Below, one piece after another: positions 12,785 to 41,623 of a DNA stretch of 64,000 nucleotides. The stretch's first letter is position 1. Each line of letters starts with the position of its first letter. Under the pieces are notes generated by a model, which searched no databases, was not told where the DNA came from, and was given only the letters and a program-made list of their open reading frames with translations. The stretch is from the NCBI GenBank assembly GCA_000004695.1, contig CM000154.2, forward strand, positions 1,824,001-1,888,000. Reading direction: 5' to 3'. The translations under genes were made by a program, and so were the position numbers. Source of the stretch: Dictyostelium discoideum (Eukaryota).

Positions 12785-15502
12785 TTATTTTTGGTTATAT
12801 AAATAATTGAATTCATTGATTGTTAATGAATTTTTTAAATCTATAAAATAAGGATTATTAATTTTTTCAATATATTTTAAAAAAGAATAATTATGAGATT
12901 CTAAAAGATAATATAAAATTTTTATATTATATTGATCACCAATAAAATGTTTAACATAAAATAATAAATTTTGGTGATCACTAGTACTGTTATCATTATC
13001 ATTTCTATTGAAATAATTTAACATTATTAAATTTATAATATTAAAATCTTTATTATTAATTACCACTTCCATAAATTTTGATAACTCTAATGAATATCTA
13101 TGAGTGAATTTATCTAATGTTTCAAATGGTGAAAAGAATCTTTTTGTTAAAAGTTCATTATCATTTTTGAAAGATGCAACAATATATTTAAAAACATCTT
13201 CCATTTCAATTCTAGTTTGAATACCATTTTGTAGAATTTGATGTAATGTTAATTGTGGTGTATTAAATGATATCATTCCTTTAATATCAACCCATGTGAA
13301 AAATTCAAATAATTTAATTTGATTTGTACCATTGAATTTTTTAATATAATGAATCATAAAATATAAATTATAATTTATATTACAACTTTTACAATTATCA
13401 ACAATATATTTTAAATAATTAAAAAATTCATTAGGAATTTGTTTCATTGGTTTCTTAAATAAATAAATTTGATCACCATCTTTAATTGAACCAGTTTTGT
13501 TGAAATAATATTCAAGTAATGATATTGAATTCGTATTTGTAATTATTTCATTATTTAAAATATTTGGAATTGTTACTGATTTAAATGATTCTATAATCAT
13601 TTCTTTAACTGAAAACCAATCGTGTAAAAATGAAAAACCTTTAAAATTATTTAAAATGAATTCATAGATTTCAATTGATTTAACTCTTTTGAAAATATTA
13701 TTTATATTATAGAAATTATTTTCTCTATCCCAATTGCAACCATTTGCATTTTTTCTAAAACCATATAAAATATTTGCTGGCATTTTAAGAATTGTATCAT
13801 GTTTTAAAATACTTTCCAATTCTTTAAATGTAATTTTTACAAATTCAAAATCATTATATTGAATAATTAATTGAAGAAATATTATTGGATGAAGTTTAAA
13901 TTTATCAAAATTAAATTTAATTTCATTACAAACTTGATTTATAAATTGGATTTGATTTGATCTATTAAAACATTTATTAAATAATAAAGGAGTGGTTGTT
14001 TCAAATAATTCTAATAATCTGGTTGATGATCCAAAAAATCCATTTTTAATTACTTCATTTAAAATACTTGAATTTGTTGACTTTTTAATTAAATTACCAA
14101 ATGAATCTTCTTTTAAATTTATATTTTTATTATTACAATAAACTAGGTCCAACTTTGGTGAAATATATTGATTCATTACTTGGTACCATCTTGATAATAA
14201 ATCAAAATTTGCAAATCTTAAAGCACTAACTTCACATCCATTGAAACTATTAATATTTTTATCAATCTTTTCAATATGTTGGAAATTATCATAATCAGTT
14301 TGTTTATAATATTTGTAATAATATAAAGGTGATGAGATATTTAATGTAATTTCTCTAATAGTTAAAAACATTTTTAATAATAATTCAACATTTTTAATTG
14401 ATGATTCTACCATTGATATTTTTAATTTTAATAATTTTTTATCAAATTCCATAGAGTTTAATTTTTCAATTGTTAAAATAAAATCACTATTATTATTATT
14501 TTTATTCTCACAATTTTGATTGTTAGTTGATTTAATAATTATTGAAATTGATTTACAAATGTTTAAAAGAAATTCAACTTTAAAATCTGATGAAAGTGGA
14601 CAAAATTCATATATTATTTTAAATGATTTATAAAATGGATGATTTGAATTTGATGGAGGATTAATACCCTTTTTAATTAAAAAAAAGTTATAAAGTTTAA
14701 TATATGTACAAATACAATTAAAAAAATCATTTTCAATTAAACATTGAGATAATCCTTCTGAAAATGGTTTATGATGTTGATTTATATGAATATGTTTTGT
14801 TGAAAATGAATTTCTTGAAATTCCTAATAATTGTTTACCAACTTCTTTTAAAAAACAATTTGAAATTTCATCCCAAATTTTAATTTCATTATTTTTACAT
14901 ATAAAAAATTCATTAACACTACCACTACCACTACCACCACTAGAGTTACAATTTTTATATAATAATTTTCTAACTTTATTTAATGTTTTACAATGATGAA
15001 GTGAATTTGAATTTGAATTACTGTCTAAAATTAAATCAAATTTTAAAGGATTTAAATAATAATTATAACCATATTTTTCTTTACATAAAACTTTAAAAGC
15101 TGGTATATTATTTGAATTTACAGTTACAGAAATTAAATGATTTAATAAACTATCACCTCTATGACCTGGAATAATTGAATTATAAAATCTTTTAAAAAAA
15201 TTAAAAAATACTAATTCATCATAATCTTTTGTTTTTTGATTATTTTTAATTGGTGAAAGAAATGAAAAAATATTAAATTCATAAGTTTTACAATCCAATT
15301 CTAAATAATGATCATTTAATAATTTATATTTTAATGTATTCCTATAACCATTTTTAATTAACCATTTAATTGAATAAATTGGTCTTAATGAACTACCAAT
15401 TGTATCAATTTGATATCTACTAATATTAAATAAAATTATTTTAAATAAATAAATATTTCTAATAATTTTCCAAAATAAAATTTCATTATTATTAATATTC
15501 AT
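12785..15502 (-). CDS. Large N/I/K/F-rich protein (905 aa) with no recognisable domain (orphan)
   Basis: Single uninterrupted 2.7-kb ORF with ATG at 15502. Such a long stop-free frame in 78% AT DNA is strong evidence of coding. Only low complexity is a GGSGSGS tract. Confidence 0.6.
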   Translation of the reverse strand: MNINNNEILFWKIIRNIYLFKIILFNISRYQIDTIGSSLRPIYSIKWLIKNGYRNTLKYKLLNDHYLELDCKTYEFNIFSFLSPIKNNQKTKDYDELVFFNFFKRFYNSIIPGHRGDSLLNHLISVTVNSNNIPAFKVLCKEKYGYNYYLNPLKFDLILDSNSNSNSLHHCKTLNKVRKLLYKNCNSSGGSGSGSVNEFFICKNNEIKIWDEISNCFLKEVGKQLLGISRNSFSTKHIHINQHHKPFSEGLSQCLIENDFFNCICTYIKLYNFFLIKKGINPPSNSNHPFYKSFKIIYEFCPLSSDFKVEFLLNICKSISIIIKSTNNQNCENKNNNNSDFILTIEKLNSMEFDKKLLKLKISMVESSIKNVELLLKMFLTIREITLNISSPLYYYKYYKQTDYDNFQHIEKIDKNINSFNGCEVSALRFANFDLLSRWYQVMNQYISPKLDLVYCNNKNINLKEDSFGNLIKKSTNSSILNEVIKNGFFGSSTRLLELFETTTPLLFNKCFNRSNQIQFINQVCNEIKFNFDKFKLHPIIFLQLIIQYNDFEFVKITFKELESILKHDTILKMPANILYGFRKNANGCNWDRENNFYNINNIFKRVKSIEIYEFILNNFKGFSFLHDWFSVKEMIIESFKSVTIPNILNNEIITNTNSISLLEYYFNKTGSIKDGDQIYLFKKPMKQIPNEFFNYLKYIVDNCKSCNINYNLYFMIHYIKKFNGTNQIKLFEFFTWVDIKGMISFNTPQLTLHQILQNGIQTRIEMEDVFKYIVASFKNDNELLTKRFFSPFETLDKFTHRYSLELSKFMEVVINNKDFNIINLIMLNYFNRNDNDNSTSDHQNLLFYVKHFIGDQYNIKILYYLLESHNYSFLKYIEKINNPYFIDLKNSLTINEFNYLYNQK

Positions 15503-28459: not shown

Positions 28460-29519
28460 TCAATTAAATGTTTTTAATATATTTTGATAAGAATTAACAG
28501 TATAATTTTGTTCATCCATTTTTTCCCACCTGTGTACACAATCTCTTAACCAAGCGAAATGAACAACTTTAATATTTGGATTTTTTAAAGCTTGTTGTGC
28601 TTTTGAAGTTCCTTCTTTAATGAAAATTAAATGAGTAGTTGTTGAATCAATTTCCAAAGAGATTTTAGCACCAAAAGATTCAGTAATTTTTGAAACTCTT
28701 GTATGGCACAATTTTGATGGATCAATTTGTTTTGGAAATATACCACTAAATACAATATTACAATCCATCAAAACTGAACTTCTAATTTCATCAATAATCG
28801 ATTTAACATGAATTGTATTAATATCACCTCTAGATAAGAATTCTCCTTGAATTGCCGGTAACAATCCTGAAAACATATCCAAGTATGGTGTATTTGTAAA
28901 AATATTTGTTGTGATATTGGTGTTGGTGTTGGTGTTGGTGTTGGTGTTGTTTGATGAAGATGGTGATAAAAAAGACGATGATGATGATAATGATAATGAT
29001 GATGATGATGATGATGATGATGGTGATTGTTGCTGTACATTTGATAATATTAATTGATTATTATTAAAATTATTATTATTTATAGGTTCTGAAATATTTG
29101 GAAATGGATAAGCTTTTGATAATTCTTGAAATGAGAATGGATATTGATAAATTGGTGTAAAATCTTGAATTTCATTATTTCCATAATTTCTACCACTAGT
29201 ATTACTACTATTTGTATTAAAGAATTTAAAAGTATCAAGTAATATTAAATTATCTTGAAAATTTCTCCAAACATCCTCTCTATCATCCAATATTATCATT
29301 TGATTAATTGCTTCGAAATTAAATATTTTACTAAAATTTTGATTATTAAATACAATATATGGTTTACCAATTGAATTTATTGGTGGTAATGGTTCAACTG
29401 GTTCTATAACTTCTTTTGTTATTACTTTTGTAAAAATTGATCTATTTGGATCTAAAATTAATGCTAATTGTTCAACATCTTATAAAAAAATAAAATTAAA
29501 TTAATTATTAATTATTGAT

Positions 29520-29562
<43 letters not shown>

Positions 29563-29924
29563 TCTTACAATATTTTGGATGAAAAGAATATAAATAAATT
29601 TTAAATTGAGAAGAAAGGGATGAAAGGAATTCTATTGCATTTGGTCTTTGTTTAACATAAAATGTTTCATTTGTTTCAGTGATTGTAAATTTGTTAATTG
29701 AATTATCTTTTAAGTAATAACTTTCAGCATTTGGATCTTTGGTTGAATGTAATAATGTATGATCAATATCAACTATTAAATACATTTTTGGTGAGCCATT
29801 ACTTGATTTTGATTCAAAATTTGGATTAATCCATGATCCATCTTTTGTTAGTAAACTTTTAATTTTCATTTCTACATTTTGACTTAATCCAACTAATTCA
29901 CTAAATTTGGATTTTGGTGGTTGC

Positions 29925-29982
<58 letters not shown>

Positions 29983-31507
29983 GGTTATTTACATTATTAT
30001 TATTATTATTATTGTTATTATTATTATTAACACCATTATTATTAATAATATTATTATTTGAAGATGGTGATAATAAATTATTTTTAGAATTGGTTGAAAT
30101 TGGTGATGGTTGTTGTAGTTGATTTTGATTTAATGAAGGTGAACCATTTGAAAGTGGTTGTTTTGGAGAAGTCATACCTGGTGTACTATTGTTACTGTTT
30201 CCACTATTTTGTTTAGTTGAAGAAGAGGAAGAGGTAGAAGAATATTTCTTTTTATCTCTATCACTTGATCTGTCTCTTTTTGAAGATTTACTACTCTTTG
30301 AATATCTTGATCTTGAAGATGATCTTGAAGATGATCTTTTTCTATAGGAACTTCTTCTACTTGATCTTGATCTACTACGAGAGGAATCTGAATAACTTGA
30401 ACTTCTTGATCTTTTCGATCTTGAATATCTTCCACTATATCTATCTCTTGATCTTGATCTACTATAATCGTCACTTGATGAATCATTTCTACTTTTACTT
30501 CTACTTTTACTTCTACTTCTACTTCTACTTCTACTTCTACTTCTACTTCTACTTGAACTGTAACTCCTTCTTGAATATCTTTTTGATCTACTACTTCTAC
30601 TACTACTATATCTGCTACTGCTACTATATTTTTTACTACTACTACTACTTTTATAAGACGAACGATGACTTCTACTATGACTTCTACTTCTTGAAGAATT
30701 TGAGCGACTTCTTGAACGAGATGATGACGATGGTGATGGAGATGATGATGATGAAGATGATCCTCTTCTTCTGTGATTTCTACTTCTACTTCTTCTTCTT
30801 CTTCTGCTGCTATATCTATTACCATATCTATCTCTTGATCTTGAACGACTTGAGCTATAACCTCTTCTTCTTCTTGATCTTGATCTCGATCTTGAACTAT
30901 CATCACTATAACCTCTACTTCTTTTCTTTTCTTTGAATTTTTTATAATCTCTTAATGATTCCTCAAAATCCAAATCCTCCTTTTTATTATTCTCTGAAAA
31001 TGCCAAAGGCATATATAATCTATCACCAACAATTGATGGATACGCTATACTTTCAGGTCTATTATAAGTTACAATACCATTACCACTACTTCTCAATACA
31101 ACATTGGCAACCGTTGTTCCATTACCAGTTACAATCATTGGTTCATTATCTACAACATGATAATCAATAACTTCACCACTACCAACATTGGCAACTACAA
31201 TGCCACCCACTTCATTATTTGGATCCATATAATAATATTGTGTTGGCTCAACTATTGATTCCACTTCTTTACCATTTATTATTATTGTTGTTGTTGATTT
31301 TGAAGTTATGGAGGTTGATAATTCTTTATTTTCTGTACATGTTAAATCTTGATTTTTTTGATCTTTTAATTTTTCTTGATTTTTGGTGGTATCTGTGGTT
31401 GAATCTTGACTTTTTCCCACTTCAACTAATTTTTCATCTTCAACAATTTCCCCATCACTAATTTCTTCACCATTTTCTTTGGAGATTTTATTTTCCTTTG
31501 ATTTCAT
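28460..31507 (-). CDS. fcp1: FCP1-type RNA polymerase II CTD phosphatase (FCPH + BRCT) with an N-terminal RS domain. Exons 31507-29569 and 29478-28460 (about 985 aa).
   Basis: DxDxT catalytic motif in MYLIVDIDHTLLHS. KIYLYSFHPKY + T before a GTAAGA donor and ttataag acceptor gives YVEQLALILDP...IILDDREDVWRN (FCP homology). C-terminal BRCT (HLIFIKEGTSKAQQALKNPNIKVVHFAWLRDC). Upstream in the same ORF: RSRSRS / SRSKS Arg-Ser repeats, poly-Q and poly-N. Confidence 0.75.
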
Positions 31508-32021: not shown

Positions 32022-34774
32022 TTAAACAAACAAAATAATTAAAATTAAAAATAAAACAAGAGAAAATAATTGGCAAAATTTAAAATTATTAGAGTGATTA
32101 TTTTCATCATTTTCGGAATGATTATTATTATTGGTATTGGTTTTATTATTACCATTTGGAATTGGAGTTGTTGATTTTGGATTTACAGAGGGAGATGGAG
32201 ATTTAGAAATAAATGGAGACAAAGATGGAGATAAAGATGGAGATAAAGATGGTGATAAAGATGGAGATAAAGATGGTGATAAAGATGCAGACAAAGATGG
32301 TGATGGAGAAATTGTTTCAAACGGTGTTTCAGTTTCTGGTGGACTCCATTCAAAAATTGTATCACCAACAGATTGGCCATTTATAGTTACGTTTATGAAT
32401 GACTTTGGTTTATCACTTGTAATGGTATCATTTGTTACAATTAATGGTTCTAAAAAACATTCAAGTTTATTAGAATCGAAAACAACTATATCACCACAGT
32501 TTCTAGAATCAATTGTAATACTGTTTAATTCATTCTCTGCAAAATTGGTTCCAGTTATTGTAACATTACCACCTTTAATTTGGTCAACTTTTGTAGTGGA
32601 TAAAATAGTTGGTGGATTGTATGAAAGGGTTAATGGAGATGGGAGTTGTACATCGTCTACAATTAATATAACTAGATTATTTTTTCCACTACCTTTTGGT
32701 GCCATACATTCTAATGTTGTTGGACTGGATATAGAAACAGAGTCACATGACTTTTCACCAACCATTATAGTAATTGTTGATTTACTATCAAAGAAAGAAC
32801 CAACAATTGAAACACTACCGCCATCTGTATTTATAGAAGAGATTGATTTGCAAATTGGAAGAATTGAAATTTTGAAACCATTAGAATCACTAGATAAACC
32901 ATCAACAACAATAATGGCATTGTTATCAAATTTAGCTGTTTCTGGAAGTGTGAATGATGCTACACCATTTTCAAGTGAATCTGCTTTAATAGCGCCATTG
33001 TTTAAAGTTAATTCCACAAGTGATGCATCAGAACCAAGGTTTCTACCCTTAATCTCTAAAATATTTTCTTTTTGGGTTGGTTCAAGTTCAAATGGTGGTT
33101 GATAACTAAAAGCAATTCTATATGGTTTATGAGTACCAAAAGTTACAACGGCAACCATTTTATTACCAGTACCAGAAGAAAGAGTACATGAAAGTTTTGA
33201 AACATCAATAATTACATCTGTACATTCAATTGGATTGGTTTTACCTGTATTTTCAATTTGAATACTTGGTTTAACACCTGATGGATTCAAATAAAATCCA
33301 GATATTTCAAATGGTCCACCTTCCGTTGGGGCAAGTGTTAATGGTTCAGTTAAAACTGGAGTTGTGGTAAAATCAAGTTTATTTGAAATATCTTTATTAT
33401 TAGAAACAACAAAACTGCCACTGAAAATTTTTGAAGGTAGGGTAAATACCAAAACATTCTGAGCATTATCATCATCAGTTGGACTAATGGTGTTTTCTTG
33501 ATTTTTTTGATCAGTGATAATAATTTTTGAAGTACCCATCGTACCAAGACTTGTTCCTTCAATTGTAAAGTTAGTACCAGTTTGCTTAATATTTAAAATT
33601 TTTGGAATACCATAGGAATATTCTAAAACATTGGAATTGGAAATATTATCAATATTAATTGAAACCTTCAATTTTTTTATTCCACCTTTTGCAGTAGAGT
33701 GTGGTAATTTACAAATAATTTCACTTGAAATTTGGCTAATAATATCACAATGATAAGATCCAATGGTAATAGAGGTTTTTGATGTATCACCTGATGCACC
33801 CTTTAAGCATTTACCAGTTATTGTTACAACACCACCAATCACTGGAACGGAATTTATTGATAAAGGTAAAGGAGTAAACTTTAGTTGAGAAAGAGATGAA
33901 GATAAACCATTCACATCAACTTTAACAGATAAGGATTGGGTTAATTTTGGTTCATAATTAAATACAATTAAATCATTATTAACTGATACAATTGATGAAG
34001 CTGTTAATACTTGACTTCCCAACTCAATCTTTATTAATCTTTTATCAGTGTAAAAATTAGAACCACTTATTTTAAATTGACCATTTGATGATGATTCAAT
34101 TTTATGGATAGACGGGGCAGCAAAATTTAATTTGAAGGTTGAAGTTCCCAATTGAACACTGAATGAACCAGATCCACCCAAGTTTTTAACATTAAATTTA
34201 GTTGCATCTTTTGGAATTGGTGGATCTAAATTTAATTTTTTGGTTTTACCACCAATAATTACATTTAAAGTTTTTACATCATACCCAAATCTCAAAAAAT
34301 TACCAGTTACCAATGATAACCCAGGTTCAGTTGATGGTGTAAATTTCAAATCTCTTGGCGGAGGTATTGGCAAACCAATCATTGGATGCTCAGTTGTTTT
34401 ATCTTTTCCATCCATATATTTCCCATTGAATGTAAGAGTTGAACCAATTAATTTTGTAAAATCTAAATCTTTTGATTTACAAATACAACCATCTTTACCC
34501 TTTCTAGTACATGTAAACAATATTTTTACAGTTGGACAACTCTTATCTGTCAATATAATATTTGTTAAGAATTTATCAACTTTACTTCCAACATATACTA
34601 ATTTCTTTCCTTCAACAGAAACATTAACTAATAATTTTGAAAAAAAAAAAAAAAAAAATAAATAAATAATTAAATTTACAATAATACTTTAAAATTTAAT
34701 TTACAACAATAACTTACATCCAGCCTTAATTAAATTAAAAAAAGATATAATTACCAATAAATATAGTATTTTCA
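32022..34774 (-). CDS. IPT/TIG-repeat cell-surface glycoprotein, Tgr-like, paralogue A. Main exon 34627-32022; the signal-peptide exon at 34774-34718 appears frameshifted.
   Basis: Multiple IPT/TIG-like modules (ISGSNFYTDKRLIKIELGSQVL, ISIVGSFFDSKSTITIMVGEKSCDSV, ITGTNF...). S/P stalk (SPSLSPSLSPSLS 12-nt repeats) and a C-terminal hydrophobic tail (FCQLFSLVLFLILIILFV, GPI/TM-like). Upstream, ATG AAA ATA CTA...GCT GGA T + GTAAGT would encode the signal peptide MKILYLLVIISFFNLIKAG, but a T6 run (versus the T7 needed) puts a TAA stop in frame. Confidence 0.7.
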
Positions 34775-35436
34775 TTTTATTAATTAAAAAAAAAAAAAAA
34801 AAAAAATTAAATTCTATAAATATAAAAATTTTCATGTACACCAATTTTTTTTTTTTAAAAATTAATAAAGTAATATTAAATAAAATAAAATAAAATTTAA
34901 TAAAATAAAATATTTGATAGATTTAAGGATTGGTTTAAAAAAATACTTGGTAGAAATTAAAGACGAATTGTCCGTTTATTATTTGATATCTTTCTATTGC
35001 CATTTTCAATTTATCATATTAAATTTTAAAATATAAACAAATTCTGCATTTTTCTGAAAAATAATATGTTTACCTCATCTTTTATTCATTTATTATTGTC
35101 AAAAAAAAAAAAAAAAAATAAAAAAAAATAAAAAAAAAAAACTACCACTAACCACTAATTAAAGAAATATTTTTTTTCATAATCTTAATTAAGATTATAT
35201 GAGTTTTTATTTATTTACATCTTTATATAATATTTTATAATATCATTTTATATATATATATTTTATTATTATCATTATCATTATTATTATTTTTATTATT
35301 ATTATTATTTTTTTTTTTTATTTTTTTTTTTATTTTTTATTTTTTTATTATTATTATCTTTATTATTATTGTTAGATTTTTTTTTTATTTTTTTTTTTTT
35401 TTTTATTTTTTTTTTTATTTTTTTTTTTGGTTATTT

Positions 35437-38153
35437 TTAAATTATTTGGATTAGTAATAATAATGAGAAAATTAAAATTAATGAATTAGAAATTTTAGAA
35501 GAACTATTTTCAATGTGTTTATCTATTGGAGATGTTGTTGGTTTTTCAGTTGGTTTTTCAGTTGGTTTTTCAGTTGGTTTTATAGTTGGTGCTAATGTTG
35601 GTTTAGGAGTTTCAGTATTGAGTGCTTCATTATCATATTCAAATACTTCACCATTAGCAGATTGACCATTTACAGTAACATTTACGGCCAATTTCTTATT
35701 TGTTAATGAAGGATCTATTGTTGATTTTGAAATTGAACAAGTAAGTTTGGTTGAATCTATTACAGAAACATCTTCACATGATTTACTTCCAACATTTACT
35801 GTAATCAAAGTATTTTCAAAATTGGTACCATAAATAGTAACTTGACCACCTTCAACTTGTTTTACACTTGTTGATGACATAATGGTTGGTGGACTATAAT
35901 CTAAAAACAATGGTGGTGATAATTTTGATTCAGCATCTTTAACCATGAATGAAACAGCATTTTTAATACCACTTCCTGGTGGAGCAGAGCAAGTAAGTGT
36001 TTGGGTATCTACAATAGTCAAAGAATCACATGAATGATTTCCAACCATAATTTTCAAACCAGTGTCCTTTTTATTAAAGAATGAACCTTTAATTGTCACA
36101 GTTGATCCAGAGGTTTGTGATTGAGTAATTGATTTGACAACTGGTTGAAGCTCGACATCAAGTTGGTCAGAGTCTGAGTTTTTAATACCATCAACTGAAA
36201 TGGTGGCATATGAATCACTCAATAATGTACTTGGCAAATCGAATGAAACAGTACCATTTTCAAGAGAGGAAGCTAACAGTTCGTTTCCGTTCATGTCTAA
36301 CTTTATATATTTTGAATTTGGACCAAGGTTTTTGCCACTAATTTGTAATTTATTATCAGACATTTGTTTTGCGACTAAAGAACTTGGGGATTGGTAGTTA
36401 AAATCTAGTGGAATTGAGTTTTCACCAATAACAATTGTAGATTTAATTGAACCACATCCTGGTGCAAGTTTACAAGTAGCAGATGATGAATCTGGACTAA
36501 TTAAGAAATCTGAACAATCAACACTTTGATTTCTTGCATCCAAAAGGGAAATAGTTGCTTTTGCTTTTGAATCAAGATAACCACCGATGAAATTAATTTC
36601 TTGACCATCTGTTGATGGGAGAGCTTTTAAATTAGAAATAAATGGTGTTGGTGTGACATCAAAATTATTTGAAGTATCTTGACCATCATAGACTGTAACT
36701 GCACTCTTTGATGAGTTTGTTGGTAAGTTAAATGTTAAATAAGATTCCTTTTCATCATCAAAACCTACAACAGAAAGGTCAAATGGGGTTGGAGAGCCAC
36801 CTGTTGCAACACGAATAACTGAATCGGTTTTACCCAAGTTTGAACCGGTAATAGTGAATAAAGATGCTCCTGGTTTTTGGTCAATTTTGGTAATTTGTGG
36901 TATTCCATAAGAGTATAATAATTGATTGGTATTTTTAATACCATCTATAGTAATAACAACTTTTAGATCCTTTGAACCATTCTCTTTTGAAGCAGGTGGT
37001 AATTGACACATTATTTCTGTTGATATTTGAGCACCAACAACAGCACATGTGTATGCACCTACTAAAACAGATGTAACAGATGGACCAGATCCTTTTAAGC
37101 ATTTACCAGAGATAGTGATTAGACCACCAGTTCCTTTAGAAACAGATTTATCAATTGCTTGAGGATATGAAGGGATTGTAACATAATAAGCAGCAGTTTG
37201 GGAATTACCACCGACAGTAATAAGTAACGATGAGTTTGAAGAATATTTTGAATCATAGTCAATTAAAATTTTTGATGTATCACTTGAAGTAATTGAAGCA
37301 CTAAGATCATCCTCACCCAATTTTACACTGATAACCTTTTTATCGATCCAAAAGTTTTGACCACTGATTGAAATTTGATTATTTGTAATTGCCACTGCGG
37401 AAACAACTGGTCTAGAAAAGTTTACCGGAAAACTCATAGAACCAAATGTAACTTTCATTGAACCATAACCACCTGGACTTTTAACCATTATTTTGGTTGC
37501 GTCAGTATTTGATGAAACACCCAATGACACTGGTTTTGAATTGTAAACACCAGGAAGAGTTGTAACATCTTCACCAAATAATAAGAAATCTCCAGTCATA
37601 AGAGCAGCTGTACCAGCCATTGTTGGTGGTTCCCATTTAACCTCAGTTGGTAATGGTAGTGGAATTTGATTGGCTTTAATATCATAGGCAATTACTATAT
37701 TTGGGGTTTTTAAATTTGCTCCCCTTAGAGTTAATTTTCCAGCTAATTTTGTAAAGTCCATATCCATACTCGTACAAACAGGGCTATTGGCAGATGGAAT
37801 TTCACAAGTGAATGTAATTGAGTAATCTGGTAATATTTTTTGGGAAGTTAACAAAATTTCAGTAATTTTGAAATCTACATTGGCACCAGTATATATTAAC
37901 TTTTTTCCTTTAACAGATAAAGTATCTTTTTTTAAATGTTTAAAAAATATATTAAAAAAAAAAAAAAAAAAATTATTAGTAATCTATTTTTAATCTATTT
38001 TTTTTTTTTTTTTTTATTATTATATTTAAATTTTTTTATTTATTTTATTTTTTAATATTATTTTTTGATTTAAAACTTACAACCAGCATCAACAATATTA
38101 AATATTGTTAGTGATAGAATAAAAAATAAAAATAAAATTTTATTTATTAACAT
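35437..38153 (-). CDS. IPT/TIG-repeat cell-surface glycoprotein, Tgr-like, paralogue B. Exons 38153-38081 and 37925-35437 (about 853 aa).
   Basis: Exon 1 encodes the signal peptide MLINKILFLFFILSLTIFNIVDAG + T before a GTAAGT donor. After acceptor aaaaag at 37927-37926, exon 2 reads YTLSVKGKKLIYTGANVDFKITEILLTSQKILPDY... Paralogous to gene A throughout (shared CxxC framework and IPT modules) but with KPTEKPTEKPTEKPT stalk repeats and the hydrophobic C-terminus LILIFSLLLLIQII. Confidence 0.8.
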
Positions 38154-39604: not shown

Positions 39605-40336
39605 ATGGGTGTAGGTGATAATGAAAATCCAATTGTTAGTTTTAAGTTTATTGTAACATCATTATTAACAAAATTAATTGGTAGATACTTTAAAGAATTT
39701 GGTTATACTGAATTTATTTACTATTCAATTTTTTTTTTTGGTCAAAAGATAAAATATTTTCAAAGGGATCCCGATGAAAAACCATCAATTTTAAAGATGA
39801 TACTTCCACTAATCTTTATGATTTTAAATGTGATTTTTGCAGTTTATTATTTCAATGAAGATTGTAAAGAAATTATTTCAAAAAATAATGACCCCAATTT
39901 ATTTATTGGATTAATATTACTTAAATATTTATTTCATAATAATAATATTACACATGTTATGATTCATATTACTGATATTTATTTAAATGCTATTGTAAAT
40001 ATAATATAATTTTTTTTTTTTCAAAAAAAAAAAAAAAAAAAAAAAAACACAAAAACACAAAAAAACAAAAACACAAAAACAAAAAAACTTATAATTCTTT
40101 ATTATTTAATTATTTAGAAATTTATTGAAATTATAAAACTAATGATAAAAGAAATAATACTAAATTATTATGCAAAAATGAATAAACAATTAACAAAAAA
40201 ACCATTTGAAAATTTAGATGGTGCTGGTGGAGATGATAGTGGTGAAGATGACTATTTTGAAGAAATAATGTGTGTAAACAAAGGTGAAAAAGAAGAATAT
40301 TATGAAAGTAGAAAATTAAAACAAAAAATAAATTAA
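39605..40336 (+). CDS. Novel small membrane protein with an acidic C-terminal tail, copy 1. Exons 39605-39994 and 40118-40336 (202 aa).
   Basis: MGVGDNENPIVSFKFIVTSLL..., two or three hydrophobic segments. GCT ATT + GTAAAT donor and tatttag acceptor. Exon 2: KFIEIIKLMIKEIILNYYAKMNKQLTKKPFENLDGAGGDDSGEDDYFEEIMCVNKGEKEEYYESRKLKQKIN. Paralogous to copy 2. Confidence 0.65.
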
Positions 40337-40936
40337 TAAACTTTTTAAAAAAAAAAAATTTTAAAAATTAAACTATCCATAAATTCAAAAAAAAAAACTC
40401 TCGATTGTTTGAATAATAAAAAAAAAAACAGCCGCCAATTTAAATGTTTGCCATTAAGTAAAAAGTAAAAAATTAATTATTATTTGATAATAAATATTGT
40501 TTAAACTATTATTATTTTTTTTTTAAAATGAAAAAAAATATCATATATTAAAATGTAAATAGCCCAAGTTGGCCCATTTTTTGTAAAAGATATTTTTAAA
40601 TGGGAATTCATAAAAAAATAATTTAATAATTTTTAAATTTAAAAAAGTGCGCAAACTCGGACGATTTGTAATAAAATCTTTTTTTTTAAAAAATTTAAGT
40701 TCATTGGACTTAAATTTACTATGTTTGAAAATAAATTATGACCGTGTAATACCAAAAAAATTAAAATATAAAAATAAAATTTTATTTTTATATTTTAATT
40801 TTTTTTTTTTTTTTTTTTTTTTTTTGTAATTATTTTAATTATTTTTGTTATTACTATTATAATTATTATTATTATTTTAAATTTATTATTATAAATTTAT
40901 TATTAAATTATTAATTAAATATTATTTTTTTGAAAA

Positions 40937-41623
40937 ATGGTTCTAGGGGATAATGAAAACACAATTGTTAGTTCCAAGCTAATTTTAACAACATTGACAA
41001 CAAAATTAATTAGTAGATACTTTAAGAAAGAATTTAAATTTAGTTATTTTATTTACTGTTTAGTTTATATTATTGGTAAAAATATAAAATTTTTTAGAAG
41101 GGATCCAGATAAAAAACCATCAATTTTAAAGATGAATTTTCTACTATTGTTTGTCTTTTCAAATGTGCTCTCTGGGGTTTATTATTTGTATCAAGATTGT
41201 AATGAAATTTTTTCAAAAAACAATGACCCTGATTTATATTTAATTGGATTGATATTACTTATTTTTCAAGATGATAGTTTTCCACATGTTTTTATTCATA
41301 TTACTGATCTTTATTTAAATATTACTGTAAGTATAATATAAAAAAAAAAAAAAAAAAAAAAAAAAACACAAAAACTAATAATTCTTTATTATTATATTTA
41401 GAAATTTATTGAAATTAGAAAACAAAGAAAAAAAGAAAAAAAATTAAATAAAAAGGCAGAGATGCACAAAAAATTACAAAAAAAACCATTTGAAAAAGAT
41501 TTGGACGGTGCTGGTGGAGATGATAGTGGTGAAGATGACTATTTTGAAGAAATAATGTGTGTAAATAAAGGTGAAAAAGAAGAATATTATGAAAGTAGAA
41601 AATTAAAACAAAAAAAAAATTAA
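40937..41623 (+). CDS. Novel small membrane protein, copy 2. Exons 40937-41326 and 41402-41623 (203 aa).
   Basis: Same architecture as copy 1 (MVLGDNENTIVSSKLILTTL...). ATT ACT + GTAAGT donor and atatttag acceptor. Exon 2 ends ...KKPFEKDLDGAGGDDSGEDDYFEEIMCVNKGEKEEYYESRKLKQKKN. Exon 1 length (390 nt) is identical to copy 1. Confidence 0.65.

Follow-up and report, generated by a model that had tools for sequence, protein, structure and literature searches.

The window, the whole 64,000-nt stretch of Dictyostelium discoideum DNA that was analysed, contains two minus-strand paralogues arranged in tandem within positions 32022-38153, called copy A and copy B here. Both copies are intact and the locus is an ordinary one. 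With good confidence, they can be described as anciently duplicated AX4 genes for TIG-repeat cell-surface glycoproteins that are most likely GPI-anchored and likely act in adhesion or recognition.

Gene structure

Copy A runs from ATG to stop codon at 32022..34775 on the minus strand and encodes 887 aa, with a spliced CDS of 2664 nt that is open to the stop codon. Exon 1 (34718..34775, minus strand) is intact; its 58 nt encode MKILYLLVIISFFNLIKAG and the first base of the next codon. It is followed by a 90-nt phase 1 intron (34628..34717, minus strand, GTAAGT...TAG) and by exon 2 (32022..34627, minus strand), which includes the stop codon. The predicted parts of the product are a signal peptide, about nine Ig-like/TIG modules, an S/P-rich stalk and a GPI-type C-terminal tail.

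Copy B (35437..38153, minus strand, ATG to stop codon) has the same layout and encodes 853 aa in an open spliced CDS of 2562 nt. Exon 1 (38081..38153, minus strand) has 73 nt that encode MLINKILFLFFILSLTIFNIVDAG and one further base, the intron (37926..38080, minus strand, GTAAGT...AG) has 155 nt and is in phase 1, and exon 2 (35437..37925, minus strand) includes the stop codon. The donor of exon 1 is in phase 1 in both copies. An A/T-rich spacer of 661 bp (34776..35436) separates the stop codon of copy B from the ATG of copy A, and presumably holds the 3' end of copy B together with the promoter of copy A. The description of a same-strand pair of paralogues, each with a signal exon, a short intron and a large exon, had been given in the initial annotation and holds for both spliced CDSs, which are open.

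The signal exon of copy A had been described as disrupted, with a run of six T in place of seven and a TAA stop codon, which would be the result of either a homopolymer sequencing error or a recent pseudogenization. The exon reads ATG AAA ATA CTA TAT TTA TTG GTA ATT ATA TCT TTT TTT AAT TTA ATT AAG GCT GGA T, followed by the donor GTAAGT. The ATG begins at 34775 and not at 34774, one base having been dropped earlier, and a regular-expression count gives seven T at 34737..34743 (minus strand, codons TCT TTT TTT). Translated from this ATG, the exon yields MKILYLLVIISFFNLIKAG with no TAA and joins exon 2 in frame, and the CDS is open for 887 codons. TCTTTTTTTAAT is identical in D. discoideum isolate L002 and in D. 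dimigraforme L004, as are the run and the frame. The frame of exon 1 and the position of the GT donor are kept in the alignment of all five sequences compared (AX4 and four orthologous loci). In D. citrinum and D. firmibasis, NCBI gene models built independently give ...KAGFDV... across the same junction. The dN/dS of copy A is 0.22-0.29 and not near 1, which also argues against a pseudogene. The one argument for a pseudogene or a sequencing error was the six-T count, and both explanations are extremely improbable. Copy A was rejected as a pseudogene, as it has no frameshift, no premature stop codon and no relaxed constraint.

The locus is part of the reference genome of a model organism. Elsewhere in the window, positions 12788-15502 are an exact match to AX4 DDB_G0288695, which identifies the DNA as that of D. 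discoideum AX4.

Domains, stalk and predicted membrane anchor

A full-length comparison of copies A and B gives 38% identity (E = 2e-153). The IPT/TIG modules proposed in the initial annotation are recovered by the Pfam TIG model (PF01833), which matches five stretches in copy A (104.7 bits, E = 2.6e-30) and five in copy B (115.8 bits, E = 8.6e-34), both scores being above the gathering score of 20.9 bits. The Ig_TgrO1 model (PF24612) gives 39.5 bits for copy B, which passes the cutoff of 27.9; copy A falls below the cutoff in the same Pfam search. An AlphaFold2 model of copy B (mean pLDDT 70) shows sandwich domains strung together, all of them beta, and its best PDB matches are FMG-1B, the IPT domains of plexin-A, the IPT domains of Met, and DSCAM. 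Each protein has nine N-x-S/T sequons and is probably glycosylated.

Both copies have the S/T/P stalk and the C-terminal hydrophobic anchor reported earlier. The stalk of copy A is encoded by a 12-nt unit repeated 7.7 times (32213..32304, minus strand) that gives (S[PA]SL)n, and that of copy B by a 12-nt unit repeated 4.5 times (35537..35590, minus strand) that gives three KPTE units and KPTT. The earlier counts of 9 SPSL and 4 KPTE units are only approximate, since copy A has six exact SPSL units, or seven when counted as S[PA]SL, and copy B has three exact KPTE units plus KPTT. In the D. discoideum isolate L002, the repeat tract of copy A differs from AX4 in both sequence and length, and that of copy B is one unit shorter.

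The C-termini of both copies look like GPI-anchor signals. The call is based on a hydropathy scan and on inspection, with a tail criterion of 12-20 aa without cytoplasmic residues. The predicted GPI-attachment signal of copy A is FCQLFSLVLFLILIILFV (32025..32078, minus strand), which continues up to the stop codon, and that of copy B is SLILIFSLLLLIQII (35440..35484, minus strand); the two proteins end in ...NNHSNNFKFCQLFSLVLFLILIILFV and ...ENSSSKISNSLILIFSLLLLIQII, respectively. Apart from the N-terminal signal and the tail at the very C-terminus, neither protein contains a hydrophobic segment. In copy A, these two segments are residues 1-24 and 866-887, and the hydropathy scan finds zero residues beyond the tail. 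In copy A, copy B, seven orthologues and the D. purpureum protein, the polypeptide stops with this tail, which takes up its final 15-18 residues. Small residues (S/N), a candidate omega site, lie just upstream of the tail, a feature shared by all orthologues and by D. purpureum. In the nearest dictyostelid-type TIG proteins outside this group, KWLIPAIVIP leads into a transmembrane helix and a basic cytoplasmic tail. The hydropathy scan and inspection found no such helix with a cytoplasmic tail in any member of the clade formed by copy A, copy B and the D. purpureum protein.

Conservation and selection

Copy A and copy B each occur once, at the syntenic position, in five genomes from four species, counting the AX4 window: D. 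discoideum (AX4 and an isolate), D. citrinum, D. dimigraforme and D. firmibasis. Along the locus, a choline transporter gene is followed by a PLP decarboxylase gene, small gene(s), copy B, copy A and an FCP1-like gene; this series is found in D. discoideum, D. citrinum and D. dimigraforme, and also in D. firmibasis, where no small gene was called. D. purpureum has one copy at the corresponding place, adjoining the choline transporter. The identity of copy A to its orthologues is 95% in the D. discoideum isolate (exon 2, tblastn), 77% in D. citrinum and 71% in D. firmibasis; copy B is 95%, 80%, 78% and 69% identical to its orthologues. In existing annotation, the orthologues of both copies are listed as IPT/TIG domain-containing or hypothetical proteins.

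The overall dN/dS of the two copies is 0.21-0.29, and the highest value among 60-codon windows is 0.55. The dS between AX4 and the isolate is 0.075 for copy A and 0.11 for copy B, which is close to the background of the locus (0.03-0.11 in the neighbouring genes). In a tree with transmembrane-type dictyostelid TIG proteins without tgr names as comparators, copy A, copy B and the D. purpureum protein form a clade with 100% bootstrap, and copies A and B group without D. purpureum at 73.5%. The duplication falls between the split from D. purpureum and the later split from D. firmibasis, and purifying selection has kept both copies since then.

Relation to the Tgr family

The initial annotation placed both genes in the rapidly evolving Tgr (tiger) family, which would give them a role in kin recognition or allorecognition like that of TgrB1/TgrC1, with fast evolution under diversifying selection. 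This assignment seems quite unlikely to be correct, although the part of it that concerns the ectodomain stands. As judged by sequence comparison, the ectodomain of copies A and B is homologous to the dictyostelid Tgr-type ectodomain; copy B passes the Ig_TgrO1 cutoff, and both copies are 24-30% identical to the transmembrane-type dictyostelid TIG proteins. The AX4 tgr family is also large, with 38 genes and 26 pseudogenes; some of its subfamilies are syntenic and evolve slowly, and a transmembrane domain is lacking in at least tgrB2 (PMC12745789; bioRxiv 10.1101/2025.10.22.684067). Therefore, the missing helix does not by itself exclude Tgr membership.

Tgr proteins have a single-pass transmembrane helix, the "T" of Tgr, followed by a cytoplasmic domain that mediates signalling (PMC12745789). 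This part of the proposed architecture does not stand for copies A and B, as zero members of their clade have a helix with a cytoplasmic tail, and the clade lies apart, with 100% bootstrap, from the transmembrane-type TIG proteins, which do not carry tgr names. The claim of rapid evolution in the allorecognition sense is contradicted by genes that are single-copy and syntenic in the five genomes of four species, with a dN/dS of 0.21-0.29 and no window above 0.55. The two genes are in tandem on the same strand and not head-to-head with a shared promoter, and their divergence between AX4 and the isolate resembles that of the neighbouring genes. On the same grounds (tandem arrangement, synteny, dN/dS of 0.21-0.29 and isolate divergence near the background), copies A and B were rejected as an allorecognition pair of the TgrB1/TgrC1 type.

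Since the broken signal exon does not exist, the locus is of little interest beyond its correct annotation. The TIG-repeat clade to which the two copies belong looks GPI-anchored, stable and under purifying selection; therefore, it should be kept apart from the transmembrane, fast-evolving Tgr allorecognition genes in analyses of gene-family dynamics and of kin-recognition candidates.

Proposed function

The proteins encoded by copies A and B would start with a cleavable signal peptide, for which there is a separate small exon. About nine Ig-like (IPT/TIG) beta-sandwich modules would then form a rod, followed by a short S/T/P stalk that is encoded by repeats and probably O-glycosylated. The C-terminal hydrophobic peptide is most likely exchanged for a GPI anchor, in Dictyostelium a ceramide-based phospholipid. 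The mature protein would then be held at the outer membrane leaflet and could bind partners through the TIG array. It could not signal alone, since it has no cytoplasmic domain. Its function is most likely adhesive, with a likely role in cell-cell or cell-surface adhesion and recognition.

Copies A and B may be members of the gp138 family. The gp138 proteins form a small multigene family and have hydrophobic peptides at both the N- and C-termini. GP138A/B/C are reportedly D. discoideum cell-surface glycoproteins implicated in sexual cell fusion, and gp130 is said to be a distant relative of gp138. The mature A/B polypeptide of about 90 kDa, with nine N-sequons and a stalk that is likely O-glycosylated, would fit an apparent mass of some 138 kDa.

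It is possible, but doubtful, that both copies are vegetative surface glycoproteins that serve in substrate adhesion, in phagocytosis or macropinocytosis, or in the glycocalyx, as gp130 would, and not in gamete or cell-cell recognition. According to a passage in PMC2443395, the gp138-similar gene gp138B2 is up-regulated in microarrays by phagocytosis or growth on bacteria, and gp130 knock-outs are described as having reduced adhesion in work cited in a passage of PMC9197732. However, the sequence features of copies A and B do not separate a vegetative role from a cell-cell role. A further proposal is that the TIG arrays of copies A and B bind in trans, either to one another or to a common partner. 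They would then be a conserved, non-polymorphic, lipid-anchored counterpart of TgrB1/TgrC1 for gamete or vegetative cell recognition, and both would have been kept as a heterophilic pair since before the D. firmibasis split. This proposal is speculative and rather unlikely to be right.

Comparison with known systems

Like copies A and B, the Tgr proteins TgrB1/TgrC1 have a signal peptide ahead of a long ectodomain in which IPT/TIG and Ig-like E-set modules recur; they also share a total length of about 850-900 aa and the restriction to dictyostelids. They differ at the C-terminus, where Tgr proteins have a transmembrane helix and a cytoplasmic signalling tail whereas copies A and B have a predicted GPI-type hydrophobic end. 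TgrB1/TgrC1 also form a divergent head-to-head pair with a shared promoter, in contrast to the same-strand tandem of copies A and B, and they show extreme polymorphism, with diversifying selection or rapid turnover, whereas copies A and B are stable with a dN/dS of about 0.25.

The IPT arrays of metazoan plexin and Met/Ron and the Chlamydomonas protein FMG-1B are, like the copy B model, strings of IPT-type beta-sandwiches. In the structural matches, copy B is 19% identical to plexin A1 IPT3-6 and 20% identical to a Met fragment, a resemblance that, for plexin, Met/Ron and FMG-1B, holds at the level of the fold only. Plexin and Met differ from copies A and B in having sema, PSI and kinase or GAP cytoplasmic parts, which are absent from both copies.

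Contact site A (csA/gp80) was not matched in the searches with copies A and B, and it is much shorter than either. In csA, a C-terminal peptide of about 25 aa directs attachment of a ceramide-based lipid anchor, according to a passage in PMC2119896. This D. discoideum glycoprotein acts in adhesion at the cell surface and has a stalk rich in S/T/P; it shares with the predicted products of copies A and B the layout of a lipid-anchored, Ig-like adhesin.

Gene structure and the signal exon of copy A

The interval contains two long ORFs, both on the minus strand; upstream of each is a short exon with the ATG, followed by an A/T-rich intron. Copy A has exon 1 at 34775-34718, a 90-nt intron at 34717-34628 (GTAAGT...TAG) and exon 2 at 34627-32022, and encodes 887 aa. 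Copy B has exon 1 at 38153-38081, a 155-nt intron at 38080-37926 and exon 2 at 37925-35437, and encodes 853 aa. The reading frames of both copies are open once the exons are spliced. Both introns are in phase 1 and begin, with GTAAGT, after ...GCT GGN T; therefore, exon 1 ends two residues past the predicted signal-peptidase site, which lies between IKA and G in copy A and between VDA and G in copy B.

The initial annotation described the signal exon of copy A as disrupted, with six T in a run that needs seven. The run (34743-34737) has 7 T, not 6, and exon 1 reads MKILYLLVIISFFNLIKAG and contains no stop codon. In an alignment with four orthologous loci, TCTTTTTTTAAT is identical in the second D. 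discoideum isolate and in D. dimigraforme, a substitution in D. citrinum interrupts the T run without changing its length, and the frame and the position of the GT donor are kept in all four. Independent NCBI gene models of D. citrinum and D. firmibasis also read ...KAGFDV... over the same splice junction. Copy A is not disrupted. Its ATG is at 34775 and had been placed one base too low, at 34774, which is the offset that loss of one base would give. The disrupted exon, the sole unusual claim made for this locus, is thus a counting error, and the interest of the locus is low.

The signal peptide of AX4 copy A is one codon shorter than in the other four genomes, with an in-frame 3-nt gap after ...CTATA. 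The gap affects the hydrophobic core of the peptide and is a harmless length polymorphism.

The protein collection searched contained no exact match to either protein model, and homology searches with A and B returned orthologues of other isolates and species only, the AX4 entry never being among the matches. Copies A and B are a real, ordinary gene pair, which has almost certainly been annotated already.

Genomic context and origin of the pair

The window has a very low G+C content, as in dictyostelid genomes, and the neighbors of A and B are ordinary housekeeping genes. The ORF at 12788-15502 on the minus strand is identical residue-for-residue to DDB_G0288695 (XP_636582/Q54IK4), which identifies the window as D. 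discoideum AX4. A and B lie on AX4 chromosome 5, flanked by an FCP1-like gene and a glutamate-decarboxylase-like gene. Downstream of copy A, also on the minus strand, is a gene for an FCP1-like phosphatase with NIF and BRCT domains (28460-31507), which carries a very long low-complexity insert of RS/SR-rich runs, poly-N and poly-Q of about 20 residues. The plus strand carries a small two-exon gene in two tandem copies (39605-41623). Exon 1 of each copy (39605-40009 and 40937-41341) encodes a hydrophobic segment of 134 aa, and exon 2 (40142-40336 and 41462-41623) encodes an acidic segment of about 53-64 aa that ends ...DGAGGDDSGEDDYFEEIMCVNKGEKEEYYESRKLKQK. Exon 1 of the first copy had no Pfam match. 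Nowhere else in the locus does AX4 diverge as much from the other D. discoideum assembly: mismatches amount to 8-11% over this stretch, compared with 1-4% in the background. Scanning the spacer between A and B for bacterial promoters and terminators gave a count not above the shuffled expectation; the models are bacterial and are not meaningful for a eukaryote.

In D. citrinum, D. dimigraforme and the second D. discoideum assembly, as in AX4, the genes run choline-transporter-like, PLP-decarboxylase, small gene(s), B, A and FCP1-like NIF-BRCT. This order is shared by D. firmibasis, where no small gene is called. D. purpureum has just one gene that is co-orthologous to A and B (GL870969.1, 10001-12652); it adjoins the choline-transporter gene, with no PLP-decarboxylase gene between the two. 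Its downstream genes differ (SPIN90-like, Kelch), which places the right-hand synteny boundary at the co-orthologue.

Only three clusters match the A/B profile end to end in an unindexed HMMER search covering 1.84 billion representative proteins. Two are the B and A clades, and the third is a single D. purpureum protein of 855 aa whose hydrophobic C-terminus, as in A and B, has no tail. The proteins of comparable size that rank next share 24-30% identity with A and B, and almost all carry KWLIPAIVIP, a transmembrane helix and a basic tail on the cytoplasmic side. The three whose source was traced come from Cavenderia fasciculata, a second NCBI genome assembly and soil metagenomes. Neighbor-joining bootstrap support is 100% for A and B with D. 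purpureum, 100% for each of the A and B clades, and 73.5% for A and B without D. purpureum. The tree therefore places the duplication after D. purpureum split off and before D. firmibasis did.

Protein architecture

The architecture initially proposed for the pair (a signal exon, TIG modules, a stalk and a hydrophobic anchor) was largely right. A and B are 38% identical over their full length (E = 2e-153), and the presence of TIG domains is borne out by five Pfam TIG matches in each protein (E = 2.6e-30 in A and 8.6e-34 in B). Copy B also passes the gathering score of Ig_TgrO1. TIG motifs were not picked up in A or B by simple regular expressions, and with an HMM made from the two final modules each protein shows 6-7 repeat-like segments, mostly weak ones. 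In the AlphaFold2 model, with a mean pLDDT of 70, B is a chain of beta-sandwich modules, about nine as counted from the strand pattern, followed by predicted disorder from residue ~766 and a helix at the terminus. The top PDB matches to this model are FMG-1B, the plexin-A ectodomain and its IPT3-6 fragment, the Met IPT domains and Ig-superfamily adhesion molecules. The intra-module cysteine pairs are invariant in a 16-sequence alignment, and each protein has 9 N-x-S/T sequons.

Both stalks are short and are encoded on the minus strand by 12-nt tandem repeats. The repeat units had been identified correctly as SPSL-type in A and KPTE in B, and the counts of 9 and 4 were approximate; the stalk of A (32213-32304) is S[PA]SL x 7 and that of B (35537-35590) is KPTE x 3 followed by KPTT. 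The repeat tract of AX4 differs from that of the other D. discoideum isolate. Each protein has only two hydrophobic segments, the signal peptide and the final 15-18 residues, with small S/N residues directly upstream of the latter and no residues beyond it. From these features, the C-terminus is predicted to have the form of a GPI anchor signal (phospholipid in Dictyostelium) and not that of a transmembrane anchor.

Selection and divergence

Pairwise Nei-Gojobori comparison of AX4 with four orthologues gave dN/dS values of 0.22-0.29 for copy A and 0.21-0.25 for copy B. The two metabolic or transport neighbors have values of 0.01-0.13, and the other neighbors are at about 0.1-0.3 in most comparisons, with 0.69 for one short FCP1-like segment. 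Sliding windows of 60 codons revealed no localized positive selection in A or B (maximum omega 0.55); the highest values are in the stalk and, for B, in the N-terminal region. Over the whole locus, the difference between AX4 and the other D. discoideum assembly is about 1-4%; it is 3-5% in B and 2-3.6% in A, and this comparison shows no clear excess that would mark a polymorphism hot spot at A/B. The dS values of B (0.11) and A (0.075) are inside the range of the neighboring genes (0.03-0.11). Fast evolution in the allorecognition sense, as previously suggested, is therefore not seen.

Across window positions ~25000-48000, AX4 and this second isolate (L002, GCA_054859385.1, labelled D. discoideum) show 1-4% DNA difference and a dS of 0.03-0.11 in every compared gene. 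The difference is about tenfold the mean diversity across the species, 0.003 (bioRxiv 10.1101/2025.10.22.684067), so L002 belongs to a deep lineage and is probably among the tropical strains of PMC12745789.

Relation to known adhesion and recognition systems

The best reading is that A and B are a pair of putative lipid-anchored TIG-array adhesion glycoproteins. A literature search with tgrO1 and the DDB_G02886x-02887x identifiers returned no matches. The gp138 proteins (GP138A/B/C) are a small family of D. discoideum cell-surface glycoproteins implicated in sexual cell fusion, with gp130 as a distant relative. A and B may be members of this family, which they fit in size, in their potential for glycosylation and in their terminal hydrophobic peptides.

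The predicted anchor signal of A and B resembles the 25-residue signal at the C-terminus of csA (PMC2119896). The assignment to the Tgr family holds for the ectodomain, which is related to that of Tgr, but not for the anchor, gene arrangement and evolutionary behavior of a recognition pair. A transmembrane and cytoplasmic part is defining for Tgr and is missing from A and B, and the genes of a Tgr-type recognition pair are head-to-head whereas A and B are in tandem. Their conservative evolution also counts against such a pair, and their divergence pattern is unlike the hot spot at tgrB1/tgrC1 (PMC12745789; bioRxiv 10.1101/2025.10.22.684067).
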